In this document: positions 2,065-53,721 of the stretch, piece by piece
Layout of the letters: every line of letters begins with the position of its first letter
Numbering within the stretch: position 1 is the first letter of the stretch
Sequence record: MF044457
Reading direction: 5' to 3' (one strand)
Length of the DNA: 64,000 nucleotides
Origin: Escherichia phage ST0
Translations under genes and position numbers: made by a program
Notes under the pieces: model-generated
What the model was told of the DNA's origin: nothing
The model's input: the letters and a program-made list of their open reading frames with translations, nothing else
Database searches by the model: none

Positions 2065-3390
2065 ATGCAATTGAATTCTCGTAATCTAAAAAGTATTATT
2101 GATAACGAAGCCTTAGCATATGCGATGTACACCGTTGAAAACCGTGCAATCCCAAACATGATTGATGGATTTAAGCCGGTTCAACGTTTTGTGGTTCATC
2201 GTGCGTTAGATTTGGCTCGTGGTAATAAAGAAAAATTTCATAAACTTGCGTCAATTGCAGGAGGTGTTGCAGATTTAGGTTATCATCATGGCGAATCTTC
2301 TGCACAAGATGCAGGTGCATTGATGGCTAACACATGGAACAACAACTATCCGTTGTTAGATGGCCAAGGCAACTTTGGTTCTAGAACAGTCCAAAAAGCT
2401 GCAGCATCTCGTTATATTTTTGCTCGTGTAAGTAAAAATTTCTATAACGTATATAAAGATACTGAATATGCTCCAGCTCATGAAGATAAAGAACACATTC
2501 CGCCAAAATTCTATCTTCCTATTATTCCGACAGTTCTTTTGAATGGCGTCTCCGGTATTGCAACCGGTTACGCAACAAATATTCTGCCTCATAGTTTTAA
2601 ATCAGTCAAAAAGGCTGTATTACAAGCTCTTCAAGGTAAAAATGTCACTAAGCCAAAAGTTGAATTCCCGGAATTCCGTGGTGAAGTACATGAAGTTGAT
2701 GGGCGTTATGAGATTCACGGAACATATAAGTTCACATCTCGCACTCAAATGCAGATAACTGAAATCCCATATAAATTCGACCGTGAAACGTATGTGAGTA
2801 AGGTTCTTGACCCGTTGGAAGACAAAGGTCTAATCTCATGGGAAGATGATTGTGGTGAACACGGCTTTGGGTTTAAGGTGAAGTTCCGTAAAGAGTACTC
2901 GCTTCCTGATGATGAAGAGCTACGTCATGAAAAAATCATGAAAGATTTTAGTCTCATCGAACGTCGTTCACAAAACATCACAGTGATTAATGAAAAGGGT
3001 AAATTAGCAGTCTACGATAACGTAGTGGACTTAATCAAAGATTTTGTTGAAGTCCGTAAGACTTACGTTCAGAAACGTATTGACAACAAAATCCTTGAAT
3101 CTGAAAAAGCGTTTAAACTTGCTTTTGCTAAGGCACACTTCATCAAAAAAGTTATTACAGGTGAAATTGTGATTCAGGGCAAGACTCGTAAAGCTTTGAC
3201 TGAAGAGCTAGCACAAATCGAAATGTATAAAGAACATGTCGATAAACTGGTAGGTCTTAACATCTTCCATATCACTTCCGACGAAGCACGTAAACTGGCA
3301 GAAGAAGCTAAAGCTAAGAAAGAAGAAAATGAGTATTGGAAGTCTACCGATGTTGTGACAGAGTACACTAAAGACTTGGAGGCACTTTGA
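2065..3390 (+). CDS. 52: DNA topoisomerase II medium subunit gp52
   Basis: 441 aa; recalled T4 gp52 similarity throughout, length matches T4 (442 aa). Confidence 0.95.
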   Translation: MQLNSRNLKSIIDNEALAYAMYTVENRAIPNMIDGFKPVQRFVVHRALDLARGNKEKFHKLASIAGGVADLGYHHGESSAQDAGALMANTWNNNYPLLDGQGNFGSRTVQKAAASRYIFARVSKNFYNVYKDTEYAPAHEDKEHIPPKFYLPIIPTVLLNGVSGIATGYATNILPHSFKSVKKAVLQALQGKNVTKPKVEFPEFRGEVHEVDGRYEIHGTYKFTSRTQMQITEIPYKFDRETYVSKVLDPLEDKGLISWEDDCGEHGFGFKVKFRKEYSLPDDEELRHEKIMKDFSLIERRSQNITVINEKGKLAVYDNVVDLIKDFVEVRKTYVQKRIDNKILESEKAFKLAFAKAHFIKKVITGEIVIQGKTRKALTEELAQIEMYKEHVDKLVGLNIFHITSDEARKLAEEAKAKKEENEYWKSTDVVTEYTKDLEAL

Positions 3391-3466
3391 GTGCCCTAGC
3401 CTTAGGATTTCTCGGTGCAATAGCTGCACTAGTGATTTGGCTGTATTGGTTGGACAAACATGATTA

Positions 3467-3487
3467 GGGAGCTTCGGCTCCCTTTTG
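3467..3487 (+). terminator. rho-independent terminator
   Basis: GGGAGC-TTCG-GCTCCC hairpin followed by TTTT. Confidence 0.7.
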
Positions 3488-3507
3488 TGCATTTTTCTCG
3501 CAAAACA

Positions 3508-3536
3508 GTTTACATGTGCTTCAAACATGATATTAT
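3508..3536 (+). promoter_or_regulatory. early promoter (GTTTAC, 17-nt spacer, TATTAT)
   Basis: GTTTAC at 3508-3513, TATTAT at 3531-3536; the roughly 70-bp promoter-to-ATG cassette is nearly identical to the one at 3829-3897. Confidence 0.65.
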
Positions 3537-3575
3537 AGACCTATCAAAACAAAACAACCAAATTGGAGAAATAAA

Positions 3576-3791
3576 ATGTCTAAAATGAAATTAACCCAAA
3601 ACACAACTACTCGTTTTGGTAAAGTTAAACCTGGTATGAATGCTCCCCGTAAAGCACTTGTTGAAGAATTAAATTTCTTAGAAGTTGAAATCAATTCTTT
3701 AGTGGTTCGCGGTTCAAATGGTCATCATTTAGAAAAGCTTCGTTCTAAAAAGGCAAAACTTATTGGCCTTATTAAAGAAATGAGTTTGTAA
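3576..3791 (+). CDS. hypothetical basic protein (71 aa)
   Basis: ORF with SD GGAGAA and upstream early promoter. Confidence 0.5.
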   Translation: MSKMKLTQNTTTRFGKVKPGMNAPRKALVEELNFLEVEINSLVVRGSNGHHLEKLRSKKAKLIGLIKEMSL

Positions 3792-3828
3792 ATTTTACCA
3801 GGGCTTTTGAAAAAGAGCCCAAAATAAA

Positions 3829-3857
3829 GTTTACTTTTGCTTCAAACATGATATTAT
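3829..3857 (+). promoter_or_regulatory. early promoter (GTTTAC, 17-nt spacer, TATTAT) upstream of motA
   Basis: GTTTAC 3829-3834, TATTAT 3852-3857; near-duplicate of the 3508 cassette; preceded by hairpin GGGCTTTT...AAGAGCCC at 3801-3820. Confidence 0.65.
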
Positions 3858-3894
3858 AGACCTATCAAAACAAATACTAATTTGGAGAAATAAA

Positions 3895-4527
3895 ATGTCT
3901 AAAGTTACTTACATCATCAAAGCTTCTGAAAACGCTCTGAATGAAAAAACTGCTGCAATAATGGTTTATATCATTAAGAACAACTTCACCACTGCTGCCA
4001 ATGTCCGTGAAGCTCTGGAAGCGGAATACAATGCATCGGTTGTTAACTCTAACATTGGTGTATTGATTAAGAAAGGTTTAGTCGAAAAATCTGGTGATGG
4101 ACTTATAGCAACAGGCGAAGCAATGGATATTATCCAAAAAGCTGCAGACCTCTTTGCCCAAGAAAATGCTCCAGAACTTCTTCAGAAACGTAACACTAGA
4201 AAAGCACGTGGAGTTACTCCTGAAATGCATGAATTAGCAAACTTTGTTTTTGAAAATATTAAAGATAAAGTTGAAGTTAAAGAAATTGGTGAAAACCGTA
4301 GTAACTTGGAAGTTCGATTTGCAAAACGAGTTCTAGGTATTCGTCAGATCGAAATTCGTCGAAATGGTTCTCTTAGAATCTTTGCATACAACATGTCAGA
4401 AACCGAATCAAAGCTGTTTACTTCTCTTGAAAATGATGTTAAGATTAAGATCGGTGGTAAATATACTTACATTGACTTCCCTAATGTGTCCAAAGAAATC
4501 ATTACCCTTGTAACTAACGTACTGTGA
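3895..4527 (+). CDS. motA: middle-transcription activator MotA
   Basis: 210 aa; recalled T4 MotA similarity (MSKVTYIIKAS...NSNIGVLIKKGLVEKSGDGLI...AQENAPELL). Confidence 0.93.
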   Translation: MSKVTYIIKASENALNEKTAAIMVYIIKNNFTTAANVREALEAEYNASVVNSNIGVLIKKGLVEKSGDGLIATGEAMDIIQKAADLFAQENAPELLQKRNTRKARGVTPEMHELANFVFENIKDKVEVKEIGENRSNLEVRFAKRVLGIRQIEIRRNGSLRIFAYNMSETESKLFTSLENDVKIKIGGKYTYIDFPNVSKEIITLVTNVL

Positions 4528-20320: not shown

Positions 20321-20349
20321 AGTCCTATCAACAACATGAGGAAATCAAA

Positions 20350-20754
20350 ATGGAAATCGGAAAATCTTATATCATTAACCCTTTGTTTAAAGACGACTTT
20401 GTTCAAGAAGCACCACACAATAACGCTAAGATGTTAAAATTGATTGAACTCCACGGGCCTAGTTTTGTTGTAAACGGAATGGAACCTGATTATGACGGCG
20501 ATACGCCAAACGTAGTAAGTGTAACTATGGAAGATGGTACTGTATGTTCTGCCGGTGGTGAAATTGAAACTTATTTTGAGATTTATCCTGACGAGTTCAA
20601 ATACTTTATTGAGTACTTTACTGAGGTAACTTTAGAAAAGCCTCAACCTACTAACGAAGGTATAACTTTAGGTGTAACAAAAATCCATTGTATCGTAGAT
20701 GAAACCAACGTCGACGAAATCATCAAACTTTTGCAAAAAACTTTTAAAAAGTAG
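20350..20754 (+). CDS. hypothetical protein (134 aa), frd.x-type position
   Basis: ORF with SD GAGGAA. Confidence 0.5.
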   Translation: MEIGKSYIINPLFKDDFVQEAPHNNAKMLKLIELHGPSFVVNGMEPDYDGDTPNVVSVTMEDGTVCSAGGEIETYFEIYPDEFKYFIEYFTEVTLEKPQPTNEGITLGVTKIHCIVDETNVDEIIKLLQKTFKK

Positions 20755-32154: not shown

Positions 32155-33147
32155 ATGTTACCTGTCATCAGAAAACTTATTTCTCCAAAAGAACTGGCTG
32201 AGATTATTCCTTTGTCGGAAGCTTACGCATCACAAGTGGCTTCTCATCGCGAACAAGTTAATTCGATTATGAACGGTGAAGACCCACGCAAACTTATTGT
32301 TGTAGGTCCTTGTTCAATTCATGACCCTATTGCTGCTGTTGAATACGGCAAACGTCTGGCTGAACTTCAAACTCGTCTTCCTAATGTTCTGTTAGTGATG
32401 CGCGTTTATTTTGAAAAGCCTCGAACTACCGTAGGTTGGAAAGGTCTTGTAAATGATCCATATCTTGACGGAAGTTTTGATATGAACCACGGTCTTATAG
32501 TTGCACGAACATTGTGTCGTAAACTTCTACGTATGGGACTTCCATTAGCAACTGAAGTATTAGACCCATTCACGATTAAGTATCTTTCTGGTATTTTCTC
32601 ATGGGTTGCTATTGGCGCCCGTACGACTGAAAGTCAGACACATCGTGAAATTGCTTCAGGTCTACCGATGTGCGTAGGCTTCAAGAACGCAACCAATGGT
32701 TCTATTAAAGTAGCTACAGACGCGATGTATAGTGCCGCCTGGCCTCATCGGTATATGGGTATGGACGTCGATGGTACTGTAGGCATTGTTGAAGCTGAAG
32801 GTAATCAGAATACGCATATCGTATTGCGTGGCGGGACTAACGGCCCGAACTATCATTCTTCTGATATTCAAGAAGCTTCTAACAAAGCAAGTGCATTAGG
32901 TCTGAATCATTATGTAATGGTTGACTGTAGCCATGCAAACGCTGATGGGTATTATAGCAATCAAATTGGTATTGGTAAAAATTTAGCAGCTAATGATTTG
33001 GTCAAAGGAATTATGATAGAATCATTCCTACATGAAGGAAATCAAAAAATTTCTGATAATATGTCCTATGGCGTTTCCGTTACCGATGCGTGCATCAGTT
33101 GGGAACAAACTAAAGAGCTGTTAACTTATATTAATAAGGTTCAATAA
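32155..33147 (+). CDS. 3-deoxy-D-arabino-heptulosonate-7-phosphate (DAHP) synthase, class I (AroF/AroG/AroH family)
   Basis: 330 aa; conserved blocks VVGPCSIHDP, MRVYFEKPRTTVGWKGL.NDP, GARTTESQ.HRE.ASGL, VGFKN, HI.LRGG, DCSHAN, S.TDACI.W; SD AAGGA upstream; phage-like AT-rich codon usage. Confidence 0.88.
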   Translation: MLPVIRKLISPKELAEIIPLSEAYASQVASHREQVNSIMNGEDPRKLIVVGPCSIHDPIAAVEYGKRLAELQTRLPNVLLVMRVYFEKPRTTVGWKGLVNDPYLDGSFDMNHGLIVARTLCRKLLRMGLPLATEVLDPFTIKYLSGIFSWVAIGARTTESQTHREIASGLPMCVGFKNATNGSIKVATDAMYSAAWPHRYMGMDVDGTVGIVEAEGNQNTHIVLRGGTNGPNYHSSDIQEASNKASALGLNHYVMVDCSHANADGYYSNQIGIGKNLAANDLVKGIMIESFLHEGNQKISDNMSYGVSVTDACISWEQTKELLTYINKVQ

Positions 33148-34083: not shown

Positions 34084-34416
34084 ATGTCTGAAGTACAACT
34101 CCCAATTCGTGCTGTTGGTGAATATGTCATTCTGGTTTCTGAACCCGCTCAAGCAGGTGATGAAGAAGTTACAGAATCAGGACTTGTGATTGGTAAACGT
34201 GTTCAAGGTGAAGTTCCTGAACTATGTGTAGTTCATTCTGTAGGTCCTGATGTTCCTGAAGGTTTTGTTGAAGTCGGTGATTTGACTCCACTACCAGTTG
34301 GACAAATTCGAAATGTTCCACATCCATTTGTGGCTTTGGGACTTAAACAACCTAAAGAAATTAAACAGAAATTCGTAACATGCCACTATAAAGCTATTCC
34401 ATGTCTTTATAAGTGA
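34084..34416 (+). CDS. 31: co-chaperonin gp31 (GroES analogue for capsid protein folding)
   Basis: 110 aa; recalled near-identity to T4 gp31 over essentially the whole length. Confidence 0.96.
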
Positions 34417-34424
34417 TATAAATA
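34417..34424 (+). promoter_or_regulatory. late promoter (TATAAATA) upstream of rIII
   Basis: Exact TATAAATA on the plus strand directly after the gene 31 stop. Confidence 0.5.
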
Positions 34425-34540
34425 ACTATATGAAGAGAACACTCTTCTAAGCGGTAGCCTACAACTGAGAGACTTGTCGAAAGAAAGTGAAATTCAGAAG
34501 AACGTGGCTACTAAATATTATCTCGAATTGAGAATTTAAA

Positions 34541-34789
34541 ATGATTAAACAATTACAACACGCTCTTGAACTGCAACGCAACGCATGGAATAACGGTCAC
34601 GAAAACTACGGTGCGTCAATTGATGTTGAAGCCGAAGCACTGGAAATCCTGCGTTATTTCAAACACCTGAATCCTGCTCAGGCTACTCTGGCTTCTGAAC
34701 TGGAAGCTAAAGATGAATTGAAATATGCTAAGCCTTTGGCTTCTGCAGCACGCAAAGCAGTTCGTCATTTTGTTATTACTTTGAAATAA
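34541..34789 (+). CDS. rIII: lysis inhibition accessory protein rIII
   Basis: 82 aa; recalled near-identity to T4 rIII. Confidence 0.95.
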   Translation: MIKQLQHALELQRNAWNNGHENYGASIDVEAEALEILRYFKHLNPAQATLASELEAKDELKYAKPLASAARKAVRHFVITLK

Positions 34790-34952
34790 TTGCTATCATG
34801 CGTCAGCAAAAGGTTAGCTGTGTAAGTCATGGTAGGTATGATGACGGGTTTATGGTTATCCTGTCGTTAAATACCCAAAACCTATGTTCCCGTTGAGGGC
34901 TTGCGCAGGCAATGTCAATAAGTCCTGCATTTTCATTTAAAGAGAATTTATA

Positions 34953-35132
34953 ATGGCAAAACAAGCTAAAGCAAAGAAAGCAGTTGAAAAGAAAGTTGAT
35001 GGTACCTCTAAACGCGCTGGATACAAGCGTGGGTCGAACTCTCGTATTAATCAAACAGTTGAGAAGATCATGCGCAGAGCACGTGCAGTTCTTCGAGATG
35101 ATGCTTCTCGATTTGGAAAGGTTGTTGCATAA
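34953..35132 (+). CDS. small highly basic protein (59 aa)
   Basis: ORF MAKQAKAKKAVEKK...; below the 60-aa track threshold; ends directly before a strong terminator; preceded by a 163-bp non-coding stretch. Confidence 0.4.
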   Translation: MAKQAKAKKAVEKKVDGTSKRAGYKRGSNSRINQTVEKIMRRARAVLRDDASRFGKVVA

Positions 35133-35137
35133 TTTTA

Positions 35138-35159
35138 GGGAGACTTCGGTCTCCCTTTT
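35138..35159 (+). terminator. rho-independent terminator
   Basis: GGGAGAC-TTCG-GTCTCCC hairpin followed by TTTT (same hairpin sequence as the gene 32 terminator). Confidence 0.75.
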
Positions 35160-35192
35160 GTGCGTTTAGGGCAGAAAAAGTTTAAAAAGATG

Positions 35193-35220
35193 TTTACTCT
35201 CCTGTAGGATGTGTTACTAT
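35193..35220 (+). promoter_or_regulatory. early promoter (GTTTAC, TACTAT)
   Basis: Consensus elements about 40 nt upstream of the ORF at 35263. Confidence 0.5.
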
Positions 35221-35262
35221 AGACTTGTACCACCTAATCAATAAAACAACCTGGAGAACAAA

Positions 35263-35631
35263 ATGAAAATCAATCTGAACTCATACATCAAATGTAAAGA
35301 CCACGATGGTTATAAAGCTATCGAAATTAAAGAATTCCAGTGGATGTTATACAAAGAGCAATTTGAGTTCGTAGGTTGTATGACCCCTGAAGGTCCTTCT
35401 GATGATTTCTCTTGGAAAATTGTGTTAGCAAACTTTTTCACAGGTGACACGTACGAATTAAAAACTATTATTACCGGTAAAATTCGTTCAGAAACATATG
35501 TTGACGAAGAAACTGGTTACTCTGAAGATGTTACATGGTATCAAAATGGACGCATTACAGCAGATAACCTGATCGAAAAAATGAAAGCCAAAGGTGTTTT
35601 AAATTTAGACAATTGGATTAAAGTTGCATAA
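35263..35631 (+). CDS. hypothetical protein (122 aa)
   Basis: ORF with SD GGAGAA; 30.x-type island. Confidence 0.5.
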   Translation: MKINLNSYIKCKDHDGYKAIEIKEFQWMLYKEQFEFVGCMTPEGPSDDFSWKIVLANFFTGDTYELKTIITGKIRSETYVDEETGYSEDVTWYQNGRITADNLIEKMKAKGVLNLDNWIKVA

Positions 35632-35635
35632 AACA

Positions 35636-35675
35636 GTTTACTTTGGTACAGGTTATGTTATTATAGACCTGTACC
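35636..35675 (+). promoter_or_regulatory. early promoter with 9-bp dyad symmetry (PeSL-like)
   Basis: GTTTAC 35636-35641, TATTAT 35659-35664, inverted repeat GGTACAGGT/ACCTGTACC bracketing the -10. Confidence 0.6.
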
Positions 35676-35705
35676 AATAAACAACTTAAACATCTGGAGA
35701 ATAAA

Positions 35706-36071
35706 ATGAACTACATCAACTTCGAACGCAAATATGTTTCTAACGGTATTGCTGGTTCTTCTGAAGTTATTTGCTTATGGAAACACGAAAACGGTACAGT
35801 TTGTGAAATCGAACAGTGCATGACTCCTAATTACGTTTATATGCGATTTGAAAATGGCATCACGGTTTCAATCACAATGGAAGGTTCCAACTTCAAAATT
35901 GCATTAGATGATGATTTCCGTCAACGTGATTTAGGTACTCATCCTTGCTGGAATGGTGTTAATCGTAAGCTTCTGGTTAAAACTTGGATTCGTCATATCC
36001 TGAGTAACCGAGCTAAACCTGAACATCTCGAAGCAATCTTTGATGTAGTTCTTAATGAATTCGATATCTAA
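35706..36071 (+). CDS. hypothetical protein (121 aa)
   Basis: ORF with SD GGAGAA. Confidence 0.5.
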   Translation: MNYINFERKYVSNGIAGSSEVICLWKHENGTVCEIEQCMTPNYVYMRFENGITVSITMEGSNFKIALDDDFRQRDLGTHPCWNGVNRKLLVKTWIRHILSNRAKPEHLEAIFDVVLNEFDI

Positions 36072-36077
36072 TTTAAC

Positions 36078-36095
36078 TGGGAGCTTCGGCTCCCA
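36078..36095 (+). terminator. stem-loop (weak terminator or RNA processing signal)
   Basis: TGGGAGC-TTCG-GCTCCCA hairpin with no downstream T-run. Confidence 0.35.
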
Positions 36096-36106
36096 CTGAG
36101 GAAATT

Positions 36107-36721
36107 ATGTTTAAAGTTAATACTTTTTATAAAATGAATTTTAAAAATGGGGATATTACTCCACGCCTTAAAAACATGTTCTCATATGATCTTATCGAGC
36201 CTTTTGAAGTTTTAGAAGTTACTGATGCCGGCTCGGTTTGTGAAATTAGAACGTCTGAAGGTAAAATTTATCAGGCTGGTGTTGGTAAATTCAGTAATTG
36301 TTTTACTTTAATATTCTCGACTGATTTAGATGAGCATTTTATTGAATGTCCTAACCCTAAGGTCCATGAAGTTCCACAACAAGAAACTAAGAAAAATGGC
36401 CCGCACGAATATACGAAGGTTGAAACTCCTCACGGCGTGATGTGGCGACATAACTCTCCTTTTGGAAGTAAAGGAACATTTGCTCAACTGGCTAAGCCCT
36501 ACGACGATGAAAAATATGTAGTAGTCCTTTTATCTGAACAGGGTACTCAAGACCGTGGATGCCAACGTTCCGGTTTATTGAGTGAACTCGAAGCTCATAA
36601 CCGAGCACGTGAATTCGTTGAGAAAAATCCTGGTTCTGAAGCTCTAGTCATGAAAGCAATTACTCAATATATCACTGCTCAACCTGTTGTTCATCCGGTA
36701 GAAATTAATTTCATTAAGTAG
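36107..36721 (+). CDS. hypothetical protein (204 aa)
   Basis: ORF with SD GAGGAA. Confidence 0.5.
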   Translation: MFKVNTFYKMNFKNGDITPRLKNMFSYDLIEPFEVLEVTDAGSVCEIRTSEGKIYQAGVGKFSNCFTLIFSTDLDEHFIECPNPKVHEVPQQETKKNGPHEYTKVETPHGVMWRHNSPFGSKGTFAQLAKPYDDEKYVVVLLSEQGTQDRGCQRSGLLSELEAHNRAREFVEKNPGSEALVMKAITQYITAQPVVHPVEINFIK

Positions 36722-36765
36722 TGTACATCCAAGGACGGATTAGAGTATAATGATTTCTTTAGTAA

Positions 36766-36975
36766 GTGGAAAAAAATATGAAATTTTTAATAGCACAAAC
36801 AGTCCAATTAAAAGGTGTTGGAATCCCTGGGGTGATTTTTAAAGTTCTCCCTGAATTTAAAACCGCCGCTGGAATTATCAATGAAGCGTATGCTGTTCAA
36901 TGGGTTGATTGGACTTCTGACATACGTATGGGTAAAGAGTTATCTCCTATTAAAGGGTTGAAACATGTTGAATAA
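36766..36975 (+). CDS. hypothetical protein (69 aa)
   Basis: Short ORF. Confidence 0.4.
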   Translation: MEKNMKFLIAQTVQLKGVGIPGVIFKVLPEFKTAAGIINEAYAVQWVDWTSDIRMGKELSPIKGLKHVE

Positions 36976-37177
36976 ATTAATCCAGAAATTGTTAGGCACG
37001 GAAATGGTCGAAGTTACTTATCGTGTGACTGACTGCTCGCCTATTCATCCACAGGATGAACCGTATATCAAGACAATTAAAATGCTTAAAAATGACGGTG
37101 GTTTATCCATTGAAGACCGTCTGCCTAGTTACGGTCATTGGGCTGATGTTGAAATTATAAGTGTTAAAGATGTCTGA
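36965..37177 (+). CDS. hypothetical protein (70 aa)
   Basis: Short ORF overlapping its neighbours. Confidence 0.4.
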   Translation: MLNKLIQKLLGTEMVEVTYRVTDCSPIHPQDEPYIKTIKMLKNDGGLSIEDRLPSYGHWADVEIISVKDV

Positions 37178-37628
37178 ATTAGAAATAAGAAGTAATTTCA
37201 AGTGGCCGTCATGTGCATTAAGTAACTTTGCTCAATGGCCTTTTGTTATGGATGGTATTCAATTCGGAGGTCTTGAAGGATTTCTCCAAGGATGTAAGGT
37301 GAAAAATGTTGAACAACAAAGACGTATATTTGGGCTGTCAGGTCTGGCCGCACAGCAAGCTGGAAGGTCTTATGCAAGAGCTCAGGACCGTGGGACTCTC
37401 TTCTGGTTAGGAGTTCCATTTTCAAGATACTCTGAAGCGTGGAAAGAATTATACACAAATGCATATTTTGAAGCCGCGATCCAAAACAAGGGGTTTCGCG
37501 ATGCCTTACAAGCCTCTAAAGGAAAAATTTTGAAGCACAGCATGGCCAGCCACCTAACAAAAGATGATACAATATTAACCGAAGCCGAATTTATTGATGT
37601 GTTAAACCTATTAAGAGACTCTTTATGA
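37161..37628 (+). CDS. NADAR (YbiA/DUF1768)-like protein
   Basis: 155 aa; N-terminal motif SNFAQWPF.MDG..F...EGFLQ..K resembles the YbiA-family signature (SNFA.WP...DG); motif-level assignment only. Confidence 0.5.
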   Translation: MLKMSELEIRSNFKWPSCALSNFAQWPFVMDGIQFGGLEGFLQGCKVKNVEQQRRIFGLSGLAAQQAGRSYARAQDRGTLFWLGVPFSRYSEAWKELYTNAYFEAAIQNKGFRDALQASKGKILKHSMASHLTKDDTILTEAEFIDVLNLLRDSL

Positions 37629-38440
37629 AGCCTACTATTTTGACTGATATTGATGGTGTATGTTTAAGCTGGCAATCTGGACTTCCTTATTTTGCCCAAA
37701 AATATAATCTTCCATTAGAACATATTTTAAAAATGATTCAGGACGAAAAATTTATTTCTCCTGGTAAACTGTTCAATACCGACGATAACCTTGGTAAACA
37801 ATTAATAGAAAAATATAATAGCTCTGATTTTATTCGTTACTTAGCGCCTTATTCGGATGCTCTTCGAGTTATCAATAAACTAAAAGAAGACTATAATTTT
37901 GTAGCCGTGACGGCGCTAGGTGATTCAATTGATGCTCGATTGAATAGACAATTTAATTTGAATGCTTTGTTCCCAGGCGCTTTCTCTGAAGTAATGATGT
38001 GTGGTCATGATTCTTCAAAGGAACAATTATTTGAACTAGCTAAAACAAAATATAACGTGATTTGTTACGTTGACGATTTAGCTCATCACTGTGACCATGC
38101 AGCAGAAATTCTTAATGTACCGATTTATTGGTTGGCTCGTGGTGAACGTGATGCCATTCCTCGTACTGCACAACGTGTACACACGTGGGATGATATTGAA
38201 TCTCGATTGGTTCCGCCAGAGCATAATTCAGATTCAGATCGTGAAGACCTTTTAAAACGATTGGCAGATTTGCTTAAAGAATCTGGTGCAACAAGTCCAG
38301 GTGCATGGCCTAATCAAATTGGCACTCCGTCGAATCCGTATACCTGGCGAAACCAAGGACCAACCGATATGCAGCCATGGTGGACGATTCAAAACTTTCC
38401 TTTAGATTCGTCCAAATGGACTTGGTCTATAAATTGTTAA
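37625..38440 (+). CDS. HAD-superfamily hydrolase-like protein (possible nucleotidase/phosphatase)
   Basis: 271 aa; N-terminal HAD motif I (ILTDIDGV) and a later acidic DD motif (YVDDLAHH); ATGA-coupled to the NADAR-like gene. Confidence 0.5.
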   Translation: MKPTILTDIDGVCLSWQSGLPYFAQKYNLPLEHILKMIQDEKFISPGKLFNTDDNLGKQLIEKYNSSDFIRYLAPYSDALRVINKLKEDYNFVAVTALGDSIDARLNRQFNLNALFPGAFSEVMMCGHDSSKEQLFELAKTKYNVICYVDDLAHHCDHAAEILNVPIYWLARGERDAIPRTAQRVHTWDDIESRLVPPEHNSDSDREDLLKRLADLLKESGATSPGAWPNQIGTPSNPYTWRNQGPTDMQPWWTIQNFPLDSSKWTWSINC

Positions 38441-38449
38441 GGGTTAATT

Positions 38450-38719
38450 ATGTTTGTAGTTCATGATATTACAGATGGCAAAAACACAACGCGTGACTAC
38501 GGTCACGTTAACATGTTCTTTAGAGACTGGCCAATGTTTCGTTCAGTAAAAGACGCAGAAATATTTAAAGAGTGTGTTGAACAAGGGTTCATCTACATTT
38601 CAGAATATTATGTTGAAGGACTCGGTAAATGGATTACCACTTATCAGAAAACGCTGAAATCGCTTCTAGATGAAGTGGCTTATAATAGAACCGTAACCAA
38701 AATCGAGGATATCAAATGA
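38450..38719 (+). CDS. hypothetical protein (89 aa), 30.1 position
   Basis: ORF directly upstream of and overlapping the ligase start. Confidence 0.45.
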   Translation: MFVVHDITDGKNTTRDYGHVNMFFRDWPMFRSVKDAEIFKECVEQGFIYISEYYVEGLGKWITTYQKTLKSLLDEVAYNRTVTKIEDIK

Positions 38720-40209
38720 TTTTAGATATTTTAAACCAAATAGCTGCGATCGGTTCTACTAAAACAAAACAGGAAATCCTTAAGAAAAATAAGGACAACA
38801 AATTACTTGAACGTGTATATCGTTTAACGTATGCACGTGGCATTCAGTATTATATTAAGAAATGGCCGGGGCCAGGTGAAAGGTCTCAAGCGTATGGCCT
38901 TCTTGAATTAGATGACATGTTGGATTTTATTGAGTTCACATTGGCCACTCGTAAACTCACTGGTAATGCAGCAATTAAAGAGCTCATGGGTTATATCGCC
39001 GACGGTAAACCTGATGATGTTGAAGTACTACGCCGTGTAATGATGCGAGACCTTGAAGTAGGTGCTTCAGTGTCTATCGCGAATAAGGTATGGCCTGGAC
39101 TTATTCAATTGCAACCACAGATGTTAGCATCTGCATATGATGAGAAATTGATTACTAAAAATATTAAATGGCCTGCATTTGCTCAATTAAAAGCCGATGG
39201 TGCTCGTTGTTTCGCTGAAGTTCGCGATGATGGTGTTCAATTCTTTTCTCGCGCTGGTAATGAATACCATGGTCTTACTCTATTAGCGGATGAACTAATG
39301 GAAATGACTAAAGAAGCTCGTGAAAGACACCCTAATGGGGTTTTAATCGACGGCGAATTAGTTTATCATTCATTTGATATTAAAAAGGCCGTGAGCTCAG
39401 GAAATGACCTGTCGTTCTTATTTGGTGATAATGAAGAATCCGAAGAAGTACAGGTTGCAGACCGTAGCACTTCAAATGGTTTAGCAAATAAATCTCTTCA
39501 AGGGACTATTTCTCCTAAAGAAGCGGAAGGTATGGTTCTTCAAGCCTGGGACTATGTTCCTTTAGATGAAGTCTATTCTGATGGCAAAATTAAAGGTCAG
39601 AAATACGATGTTCGTTTTGCTGCTCTTGAAAATATGGCTGAAGGCTTTAAACGAATTGAACCTATCGAAAACCAGTTAGTTCGTAATCTTGACGAAGCTA
39701 AAGTGGTTTATAAAAAATATGTTGACCAAGGCCTTGAAGGTATTATCCTTAAAAACCGTGATTCATATTGGGAAAACAAACGCTCTAAGAACCTAATTAA
39801 ATTTAAAGAAGTTATTGATATCGCTTTAGAAGTTGTAGGATACTATGAACACTCTAAAGACCCTAACAAATTAGGTGGTGTCGAACTCGTATCACGTTGT
39901 CGTCGTATTACAACCGATTGTGGTTCAGGGTTTAAAGATACAACTCATAAAACAGTTGACGGTGTAAAGGTTCTTATTCCTTTAGACGAGCGTCATGATT
40001 TAGACCGTGAACGATTAATGACAGAAGCCCGTGAAGGTAAATTAATTGGACGTATTGCTGATTGTGAATGTAATGGTTGGGTTCATTCTAAAGGACGTGA
40101 AGGCACTGTAGGTATTTTCCTTCCAATTATTAAAGGGTTCCGTTTTGATAAAACAGAAGCGGATTCGTTTGAAGACGTATTTGGACCGTGGTCCCAGACA
40201 GGTTTATAA
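38716..40209 (+). CDS. 30: ATP-dependent DNA ligase gp30
   Basis: 497 aa; adenylation motif KADGARC; size and synteny as T4 gp30 (487 aa). Confidence 0.93.
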   Translation: MILDILNQIAAIGSTKTKQEILKKNKDNKLLERVYRLTYARGIQYYIKKWPGPGERSQAYGLLELDDMLDFIEFTLATRKLTGNAAIKELMGYIADGKPDDVEVLRRVMMRDLEVGASVSIANKVWPGLIQLQPQMLASAYDEKLITKNIKWPAFAQLKADGARCFAEVRDDGVQFFSRAGNEYHGLTLLADELMEMTKEARERHPNGVLIDGELVYHSFDIKKAVSSGNDLSFLFGDNEESEEVQVADRSTSNGLANKSLQGTISPKEAEGMVLQAWDYVPLDEVYSDGKIKGQKYDVRFAALENMAEGFKRIEPIENQLVRNLDEAKVVYKKYVDQGLEGIILKNRDSYWENKRSKNLIKFKEVIDIALEVVGYYEHSKDPNKLGGVELVSRCRRITTDCGSGFKDTTHKTVDGVKVLIPLDERHDLDRERLMTEAREGKLIGRIADCECNGWVHSKGREGTVGIFLPIIKGFRFDKTEADSFEDVFGPWSQTGL

Positions 40210-53052: not shown

Positions 53053-53721
53053 ATGATCGATAAAGACTATATTGAAGAGTTACGTGCTCTTTCTGATAAA
53101 AAGGAAGCCAAAGCTAAACTGTTTGAATATGCGGAACAATTTGGCATTAGTGTTAAGAAAACAAAATCATTCGATAATATTGTTATTGATATCGAAGAAG
53201 CTCTTAACGCACTGGCTGATGAACCATTACCTGAAACTGATGGATTATCTATCACCGATTTAATTACTGCCGCAGATGATGTGGACGGTGTTAATTTCAC
53301 CAACGAAGAAGTTAAAGAAGAAGCTATTCTGTTGTTTGATTCTCCAACAGAACAAGTTGAAGTATTAGAAGTTGTCGAACAAGAAAAAGAATTCGACCAT
53401 GATAAATTCGAAGAAGCAATTACTCAGGTTGTTGAATCTGAAAAAGAGCCTGAGACAGAGGTAAATAAAGAAGTAAAATTTGTTCTGCCTGAAAATTTTA
53501 GTCCTACACTCATTAAATTAGGCAAAGGCCCAGGGTATGTTACTGTTCCTTGGTGGATTTATCAGTGGATAGCCGAAACACCTGATTGGAAATCTCGCCC
53601 AACTAGTTTTGTGCACGCTTCTGCTCACCAAACGTTATTTAGCTTAATTTATTATATTAATCGCGATGGATCAGTTCTAATTCGTGAAACTCGTAATTCT
53701 TCTTTTGTAACATTAAAATAA
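53053..53721 (+). CDS. inh: probable Inh (inhibitor of prohead protease gp21)
   Basis: 222 aa with acidic N-terminal half; position next to hoc as in T4. Confidence 0.7.
   Translation: MIDKDYIEELRALSDKKEAKAKLFEYAEQFGISVKKTKSFDNIVIDIEEALNALADEPLPETDGLSITDLITAADDVDGVNFTNEEVKEEAILLFDSPTEQVEVLEVVEQEKEFDHDKFEEAITQVVESEKEPETEVNKEVKFVLPENFSPTLIKLGKGPGYVTVPWWIYQWIAETPDWKSRPTSFVHASAHQTLFSLIYYINRDGSVLIRETRNSSFVTLK

Follow-up and report, generated by a model that had tools for sequence, protein, structure and literature searches.

A probable Mosigvirus version of the T4 30.8-30.4 gene cluster in Escherichia phage ST0, with a predicted GoF-like protein in the 30.6 slot

The T4 record lists, between rIII and the DNA ligase gene, a run of genes in the order rIII, 30.9, 30.8, 30.7, 30.6, 30.5, 30.4, 30.3, 30.2, 30.1, 30. 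The T4 30.5 product is reported to co-purify with Escherichia coli polyphosphate kinase (Ppk) and to activate the NLR-related defence protein bNACHT11, from which T4 escapes once 30.5 and two other triggers have been deleted (bioRxiv 10.1101/2024.12.17.629029). For 30.7, a passage of PMC9409239 that cites Truncaite et al. 2006 names the T4 mRNA as an established target of RegB in its Shine-Dalgarno (SD) region. Here we describe five open reading frames (ORFs) at positions 35263-37177 of a 64,000-nucleotide (nt) stretch of Escherichia phage ST0 (MF044457); this whole stretch was analysed, is called the window below, and supplies all coordinates. The interval is very probably the Mosigvirus version of the conserved T4 prereplicative cluster 30.8-30.7-(30.6 slot)-30.5-30.4, placed between rIII/30.9 and 30.3/30.2/30.1/DNA ligase, and its third gene encodes a protein that can be assigned in part to the GoF/Frd.2/MotB.1 family.

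GoF, also known as ComC-alpha, 'overcomes rho mutant effects'. In the GoF/Frd.2/MotB.1 family the N-domain is predicted to form a bent, five-stranded antiparallel beta-sheet of LSm-/SH3-like type, and a flexible linker joins it to a C-domain that varies among members (Kim et al. 2025, PMC12152347). Their genes are non-essential and of unknown function, and only the mutant GoF(D25Y) stabilizes an mRNA (PMC12152347). The second system with which the locus can be compared is the PeSL (promoter-early stem-loop) cassette of T4-type phages, for which the T4-group consensus is TTTACW-N17-TAYWAT (Comeau et al. 2014, PMC4122927).

A megablast search with positions 34400-38800 as the query matched 757 phage records, 126 of which covered at least 80% of it. 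The best matches showed ∼97% DNA identity over 100% of the query, and nearly all came from Mosigvirus phages of Escherichia or Shigella. Because the near-identical matches fall almost entirely in this genus, we place the window phage by its DNA among the RB69-like T-even phages (genus Mosigvirus), with the window read in the direction of early transcription. The five ORFs are as follows:

35263-35631, + strand: ORF1, gene 30.8, 122 amino acids (aa); SD GGAG at 35253-35256
35706-36071, + strand: ORF2, gene 30.7, 121 aa; SD GGAG at 35696-35699
36107-36721, + strand: ORF3, 'gp30.6A' type, 204 aa; phrog_17531, 484 bits
36778-36975, + strand: ORF4, gene 30.5, 65 aa from ATG 36778 (mechanical ORF 36766-36975, GTG start, 69 aa)
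36965-37177, + strand: ORF5, gene 30.4, 70 aa; overlaps ORF4 by 11 nt

The window has the T4 gene order throughout, RB69 keeps that order except that it lacks 30.5, and the annotated synteny of the locus agrees in SA79RD, T4, RB69 and SP18. On the 5' side of the five ORFs lie dCMP deaminase, 31.1, gp31, rIII and a 59-aa ORF (30.9), and on the 3' side a Phage_30_3 protein (30.3), a protein with a weak HAD match (30.2), a DUF3045 protein (30.1) and a 497-aa ligase. Homology and position together identify ORF1, ORF2, ORF4 and ORF5 as the orthologues of T4 30.8, 30.7, 30.5 and 30.4. ORF1, situated between 30.9 and 30.7 as is 30.8 in T4, RB69 and SP18, matches Pfam PF06019 (Phage_30_8) with 149.2 bits (cut-off 25), its residues 2-121 aligning with positions 3-123 of the 124 in the profile; identity is 37% to T4 30.8, 57% to the RB69 protein, 87% to that of SP18 and 100% to that of a metagenomic locus (L006). 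ORF2 matches PF06919 (Gp30.7) with 172.9 bits (cut-off 27) and is 93% identical to T4 30.7 over 121/121 residues and 99% identical to RB69 30.7.

ORF4 is 64% identical to T4 30.5 over 64 residues, that is over its full length (E 3e-28), and belongs to phrog_1690. The alignment with T4 30.5 begins at the fifth codon of the mechanical ORF, and related phages annotate a 198-nt gene; because both begin at ATG 36778, this is the more likely start (65 aa). ORF5 (phrog_2042) is 46% identical to T4 30.4 and 72% identical to RB69 30.4, and its end is overlapped by the ATG of 30.3 (37170). ORF4 and ORF5 have no match in Pfam, sequence searches of the PDB turned up nothing for ORF1, ORF2, ORF4, ORF5 or a profile of the ORF3 family (best score E 0.39, to a PI-PLC segment), and NCBIfam and PADLOC gave zero matches for any of the five ORFs. 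None of the five products has a hydrophobic segment suggesting a membrane span.

T4 gene order and orthology combine to make the interval an ordinary 30.x cluster, where a preliminary description had seen an accessory island of five unknown ORFs. That description correctly located five ORFs between rIII and ligase; the ORF list confirms them on the + strand between rIII/30.9 and 30.3/30.2/30.1/ligase, and ratios of nonsynonymous to synonymous substitution (dN/dS) confirm them as coding. It was right to place them in the 30.x region of T4-like phages, to note PeSL-type early promoters there and to find most of the products (four of the five) without known function, and it is indeed in the 204-aa ORF that the locus departs from the reference phages. 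It erred in calling none of the ORFs recognizable: four are named T4 genes, two of them with their own Pfam families, and only ORF3 is replaced, itself being already in the databases as 'gp30.6A' or as a hypothetical protein. ORF3 had also been called the largest unannotated protein of the window, but a 222-aa ORF at 53053-53721 (+ strand) is larger and matches no Pfam family at E <= 0.01, and the one Pfam match of the 271-aa 30.2 product, to HAD, is below threshold. The description had further set its claim against the possibility that all five ORFs have close homologues of known function: close homologues were found for four, and an experimentally reported partner for T4 30.5 only.

ORF3 sits in the 30.6 slot yet is unrelated to canonical gp30.6, and by the same comparisons it is the sole gene of the five to have been replaced relative to T4. 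Against T4 and RB69 gp30.6 it gave a BLASTP E value of 1.6 and an hhalign probability of 0.1%, and the PHROG matches are disjoint, none of the families matched by T4 30.6 (phrog_2153, phrog_7668 and phrog_23293) being matched by ORF3. At the DNA level, homology to RB69, T4 and SP18 spans the 30.7 stop codon, a UUCG hairpin, the SD and the codons ATG TTT, and then ends; past ORF3 it resumes at 30.5 (T4, SP18) or at 30.4 (RB69). Two candidate explanations were set aside. Replacement through a homing endonuclease or a mobile element was rejected, no such domain having been found, and PF25744 (T4_Y13H), considered as a link between ORF3 and 30.6 through its weak match to an N-terminal relative of ORF3 (P0007, below), was dropped, T4 30.6 itself being unmatched by PF25744.

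The ORF3 protein can be divided into three parts:

36107-36391, + strand: GoF-like N-domain, residues ∼1-95
36392-36502, + strand: insertion, residues ∼96-132
36503-36691, + strand: small alpha/beta C-terminal module, residues ∼133-195

Profile comparisons assign the N-terminal ∼95 residues to the GoF/Frd.2/MotB.1 family, with a predicted LSm-/SH3-like beta-barrel. Residues 1-99 match phrog_622 (E 4e-6, profile columns 3-107 of 132) and also phrog_8920, phrog_3710 and phrog_5804, while T4 GoF is a full-length member of phrog_622 (131.5 bits) that also matches phrog_3710, phrog_5347 and phrog_5804. A profile of ORF3-like proteins recovers T4 GoF (22 bits, hhalign probability 86%) and MotB.1 (10 bits), and the alignment of ORF3 with GoF contains the common motif M-x-F-K-V-N-x-[FW]-Y ... 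P-F-[EK]-[VI]-L ... G-x-V-x-x-I-x-T-S-x-G.

The C-terminal ∼100 residues, again by homology, correspond to the '30.6A' module, which in other T4-like phages appears as a separate small gene between 30.9 and 30.8. A HMMER scan of 1.8 billion representative proteins returned six matches to ORF3, namely one truncated copy, four C-terminal matches (P0003-P0006) and one N-terminal match (P0007). The four C-terminal relatives (about 116-152 aa) match ORF3 residues ∼80-195 with 45-66% identity (E 1e-19 to 1e-22) and are all encoded between 30.9 and 30.8, in SP18 (gp30.6A), in Citrobacter phage CkP1 (CkP1_0226) and in two metagenomic phages (L008 and L010); SP18 gp30.6A (SP18_gp222) is 75% identical to ORF3 residues 129-184. 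P0007 (146 aa) matches ORF3 residues 1-84 with 37% identity, and its gene lies directly after 30.7, which is the ORF3 slot, on the metagenomic Mosigvirus-like contig L006.

In more distant T4-like phages the slot after 30.7 is filled by phrog_8920 proteins of 156-164 aa. When a phrog_8920/CkP1 profile built without ORF3 or P0007 is compared with ORF3, the two end regions of the protein, N- and C-terminal, align with it colinearly (128 columns; hhalign probability 91%, E 1e-6), and the ∼37 residues at ∼96-132 are left out as an insertion that ORF3 has in common only with the 30.6A proteins. Homology of ORF3 with the phrog_8920 proteins over both domains is likely rather than proven. Since GoF-like two-domain proteins fill the post-30.7 slot in distant T4-like phages, we read ORF3 as one of the two alternative genes found there and not as a foreign insertion. 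Two further arrangements were observed in the relatives: CkP1 carries three tandem GoF-like paralogues (143, 179 and 163 aa; L005 2961-4439) where 30.8 would be, and L008 has at 3382-4414, between 30.9 and 30.8, a gene for an RyR-domain protein (PF02026) together with a 30.6A-type gene.

ORF3 was found by tblastn in 119 phage records, in 112 of them at full length with 94-98.5% identity; canonical 30.6 is present in 755 phage records. The orthologue in the same slot of JS09 (JS09_0240, 95% identical) is annotated 'gp30.6A; similar to TuIa gp30.6A', and every named member of the ORF3 protein cluster is a 'hypothetical protein'. The 90%-identity cluster of ORF3 also lists 65-aa gp30.5 proteins (e.g., URY11320.1) that have no similarity to ORF3, an apparent artefact of clustering that a gene call fusing the two may have caused. 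Word-indexed homologue searches recovered only ORF3's own clusters, and Pfam gave no match for ORF3. A hidden Markov model search of all window ORFs gave no significant paralogue of ORF3 (Frd.2 scored E 0.6). The window does carry a Frd.2 homologue at 20323-20751 (+ strand; Pfam PF03197, E 1e-33), a second GoF/Frd.2/MotB.1 member beside ORF3.

It is quite possible, if somewhat short of probable, that ORF3 is not an ancestral full-length form that gave rise to P0007 and the 30.6A genes but a recent chimera, made when illegitimate or PeSL-guided recombination joined a GoF-like gene of the 30.6 slot, resembling that of P0007, to the C-terminal half of a 30.6A gene of the 30.9|30.8 slot. The closest relatives of the N- and C-terminal halves do differ and occupy different slots, and ORF3 has its upstream hairpin, SD, first codons and downstream promoter in common with the P0007 gene of L006 but not its middle. 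However, each half has only ∼50-74% DNA identity to its nearest relative, so that no recent event is visible, and P0007 and the phrog_8920 proteins already possess a C-domain that aligns, so that divergence plus insertion fits equally well.

The signals for expression of the cluster are distributed unevenly over its genes:

35137-35163, + strand: terminator-like hairpin after 30.9, GGGAGACU-UCGG-..., with an 8-bp stem and then UUUUGUG; -18.3 kcal/mol, z -3.5
35192-35220, + strand: early promoter GTTTAC-N17-TACTAT for ORF1/30.8, 36 nt past the hairpin (35137-35156)
35636-35664, + strand: early promoter GTTTAC-N17-TATTAT for ORF2/30.7, inside a stem-loop at 35636-35682; -20.7 kcal/mol, z -3.8
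36078-36095, + strand: UUCG hairpin between 30.7 and ORF3, GGGAGC-UUCG-GCUCCC; z -3.1, without U-tract and without promoter, conserved with RB69
36722-36751, + strand: degenerate early promoter for 30.5 and the overlapping downstream genes, GTGTACA...TATAAT; sigma-70 scan 10/12

For the early-promoter pattern GTTTAC-N16-18-TAYWAT the window holds 14 matches where 0.33 would be expected; all lie on the + strand, and two of the 14 fall in this region. The hairpin after 30.9 and the promoter at 35192-35220 form a PeSL-type cassette, and the stem-loop at 35636-35682, with the promoter embedded in it, is a PeSL in the strict sense. SA79RD carries an annotated terminator at the position orthologous to 35137-35163 and an annotated early promoter plus terminator at that orthologous to 35636-35682, and the leaders 3' of the 30.8 and 30.7 promoters are 76% identical to each other (family D3). 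The third promoter, at 36722-36751, has one mismatch in its -35 element, and a stem-loop at this site is not significant (z +0.26). Its motif GTGTACATCC...ATAATGATT recurs downstream of the 146-aa gene of L006 and of SP18 30.6A, and GTGTACATCC...TATAAT is one base from the GTTTACATCC of the equivalent spacers in CkP1, L008 and L010. The pattern is absent before ORF3 and before ORF5, the latter overlapping ORF4.

With two canonical promoters, one variant and none for ORF3 or ORF5, the earlier statement that the ORFs have 'their own PeSL-type promoters' is only partly true: it applies to ORF1 and ORF2, roughly to ORF4 (one mismatch, no stem-loop), and not to ORF3 and ORF5. By analogy with T4, we predict that the genes are transcribed early from the two canonical promoters and the degenerate one, and 30.5, 30.4, 30.3 and onward would be read as an overlapping polycistron. 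The SDs of 30.8 and 30.7 are both GGAG, which is the RegB recognition motif, and following the example of T4 30.7 they may be RegB cleavage sites.

All five ORFs are genuine coding genes under purifying selection. Nei-Gojobori comparison of the window with SA79RD, ESh15, O157 typing phage 6, JS09, HX01, F2 and SQ17 (7-8 genomes per gene) gave dN/dS values of 0.13, 0.10, 0.15, 0.22 and 0.22 for ORF1 to ORF5, and both halves of ORF3 are constrained (0.18 and 0.14). One of the genomes compared, Escherichia phage F2 (MN864145), is filed as Tequatrovirus and is ∼97% identical to the window across the rIII-ligase region, including the ORF3 allele; either its taxonomy label is wrong or its genome is mosaic.

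DNA identity to RB69 changes abruptly along the interval:

up to ∼35250 (rIII, 30.9, spacer): 96-100%
∼35250-35650 (30.8): 54-82%
∼35650-36100 (30.7): 94-100%
36100-∼36950 (ORF3, 30.5): none
∼36950-37150 (30.4): 66-84%
from ∼37150 (30.3 onward): 98-100%

Identity stands at 98-100% before it falls directly after the 30.8 promoter, and it is back at 96-100% at the stem-loop that holds the 30.7 promoter. The sharp breaks coincide with promoter/stem-loop cassettes or with start codons, as the PeSL shuffling model predicts, but the four genomes used for this mosaic profile (RB69, T4, SP18 and L006) cannot prove that model. We propose that recombination at PeSL-type repeats may have exchanged both the 30.8 allele and the block formed by ORF3, 30.5 and 30.4.

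Such variation could reflect, in place of a housekeeping part in host takeover, an arms race with host immunity in which ORF3, its neighbours or both act as counter-defence proteins or as triggers of defence. We consider this unlikely as an account of the locus, although close relatives carry different alleles in the 30.8 and 30.6 slots, the genes are early and apparently dispensable, and the T4 orthologue of the adjacent gene, 30.5, directly triggers bNACHT11 besides binding a kinase of the host. The dN/dS values of 0.10-0.22 reveal no diversifying selection within the lineage, and the literature found on these genes is limited to 30.5. PADLOC gave zero matches, which, its models covering defence-system and not counter-defence proteins, excludes only components of defence systems.

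It is highly improbable that the interval is an accessory island restricted to this lineage, inserted between rIII and 30.3/30.2 as five novel ORF cassettes each with its own promoter. It does lie in a hyperplastic part of T4-like genomes, with two PeSL-type cassettes, an ORF3 absent from T4 and RB69 and a 30.8 only 57% identical to the RB69 allele. But named T4 genes are the syntenic orthologues of four of its ORFs, two of these with dedicated Pfam families, 30.7 is 93-99% identical to its T4 and RB69 counterparts, there are two or three promoters for five ORFs, and distant T4-like phages have GoF-like relatives of ORF3 in the slot that it occupies.

What the conserved 30.x cluster does is a matter for more cautious prediction. 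Searches of families, structures and literature found nothing assigning a function to 30.8, 30.7, 30.4 or ORF3, and a literature search on gp30.4-30.9, their accessions and '30.6A' found only the bNACHT11 preprint, which concerns 30.5. The orthologue encoded by ORF4 plausibly binds Ppk and activates bNACHT11 as T4 30.5 is reported to do, by extrapolation at 64% identity. With low confidence, we suggest that the genes of the cluster may be expressed early, within limits set by RegB, and that their products would be small, dispensable proteins of host takeover, each binding some component of the host. ORF3, with equally low confidence, would be a small cytoplasmic LSm-like adaptor to which the 30.6A module adds a second, exchangeable specificity. 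By analogy with GoF(D25Y) its LSm-like domain might contact RNA or an RNA-handling host factor, which we regard as doubtful. More doubtful still is the wider proposal that ORF3 represents an unrecognized fourth lineage of the Tevenvirinae LSm-like family, pairing an RNA- or host-factor-binding N-domain with a freely circulating C-module that hops between the 30.9|30.8 and 30.7|30.5 junctions.

Several points weigh against our interpretation of the cluster and of ORF3. Neither experiment nor a confident structure backs a biochemical function for ORF1, ORF2, ORF3 or ORF5, and it is from T4 that activity of the promoters, cleavage by RegB and binding of Ppk are extrapolated. AlphaFold2 models of ORF3 are poor, with a mean predicted local distance difference test score (pLDDT) of 35.6 for the sequence alone and 51.1 with a 7-sequence alignment; they place five strands in residues 6-71 at low confidence, fold searches with them were uninformative, and the LSm-like fold of the N-domain therefore depends on sequence-profile links. 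Taken by itself, the link of the C-domain to phrog_8920/CkP1 scores 1-12 bits, and it reaches significance only when both parts of the protein are aligned colinearly, profile against profile. Wild-type GoF and MotB.1 have no clear effect on RNA (PMC12152347), which makes the RNA analogy for ORF3 thin. Two deposited genomes, SQ17 (158 aa; L017 901-1377) and G2469 (P0002, 115 aa), carry frameshifted or truncated copies of ORF3, which could mean dispensability and natural loss or sequencing error. Finally, the dN/dS values come from 7-8 closely related and non-independent genomes, though synonymous changes clearly dominate. SQ17 is also without the window-type allele of 30.8.

Two genes upstream of the cluster were noted in passing:

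34953-35132, + strand: gene 30.9, 59 aa; 100% identity to RB69 30.9 and 96% to T4 30.9; phrog_1427
32155-33147, + strand: DAHP synthase gene, 330 aa, directly 5' of dCMP deaminase

The 30.9 protein is extremely basic (pI 11.4, rich in Lys and Arg) and far better conserved than the products of the neighbouring genes, a composition that suggests nucleic-acid binding. The gene at 32155-33147 is a shikimate-pathway auxiliary metabolic gene in a T-even phage; its SA79RD orthologue is annotated as a Tyr-sensitive phospho-2-dehydro-3-deoxyheptonate aldolase, and T4 and RB69 carry cd.1/cd.2 in its place. Across the whole window, Rfam at gathering thresholds and ARAGORN detected no RNA genes.

As a whole, the cluster is ordinary, comprising four long-catalogued T4 'conserved hypothetical' genes in an arrangement shared, with ∼97% DNA identity, by over 100 sequenced phages. 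What is new is that the 204-aa '30.6A' protein, hypothetical in all records, can be assigned to a family described in 2025, and this assignment would extend the GoF/Frd.2/MotB.1 family to a new genomic slot and to a new C-terminal partner, a mobile module. The locus is also a compact and clear case of apparent cassette exchange at elements that combine an early promoter with a stem-loop. Because it adjoins 30.5, whose T4 orthologue binds Ppk and sets off a defence protein of NLR-like type, host range may be affected by allelic variation at this site. Should the N-domain prove to handle RNA or an RNA-processing host protein, then P0007, 30.6A alone, ORF3 and the three CkP1 paralogues would constitute a ready-made dissection of the family.

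Compared with T4 (NC_000866 128758-130253; NP_049822, NP_049821, NP_049819, NP_049818), the window cluster is alike in order, orientation and neighbours, and it shares with T4 the overlap of 30.5, 30.4 and 30.3 and the GGAG SD of 30.7. It differs in that a 56-nt promoter-bearing spacer separates the 30.6-slot gene from 30.5, whereas the two T4 genes abut, and in its 30.8 allele, which is strongly diverged from those of T4 and RB69 and nearer the SP18 type. ORF3 resembles canonical gp30.6 of T4 and RB69 in its position after the 30.7 hairpin and in having an identical SD and identical first two codons (ATG TTT), but it has 204 aa in place of 93-95 and no detectable homology. The name gp30.6A (TuIa/SP18/JS09) exists in databases only as a name, with no function attached, and unlike ORF3 the gp30.6A proteins of SP18, CkP1, L008 and L010 lack the GoF-like N-domain and are encoded between 30.9 and 30.8.

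The promoter elements resemble described PeSL cassettes (Arbiol et al. 2010, PMC2839356; PMC4122927) in combining a promoter with a stem-loop, in occupying intergenic spacers, in having a repeated leader and in lying at mosaic breakpoints; they differ in that they stand before ORF1 and ORF2 alone, a degenerate version before ORF4 being devoid of a stem-loop. With respect to the GoF family, the ORF3 N-domain is only ∼24% identical to that of GoF and lies in another genomic slot, and its C-terminal domain is not that of GoF and comes with the ∼37-residue insertion. The two are alike in overall plan, an N-domain followed by a linker and a variable C-domain, and in their early-gene context in the Tevenvirinae.

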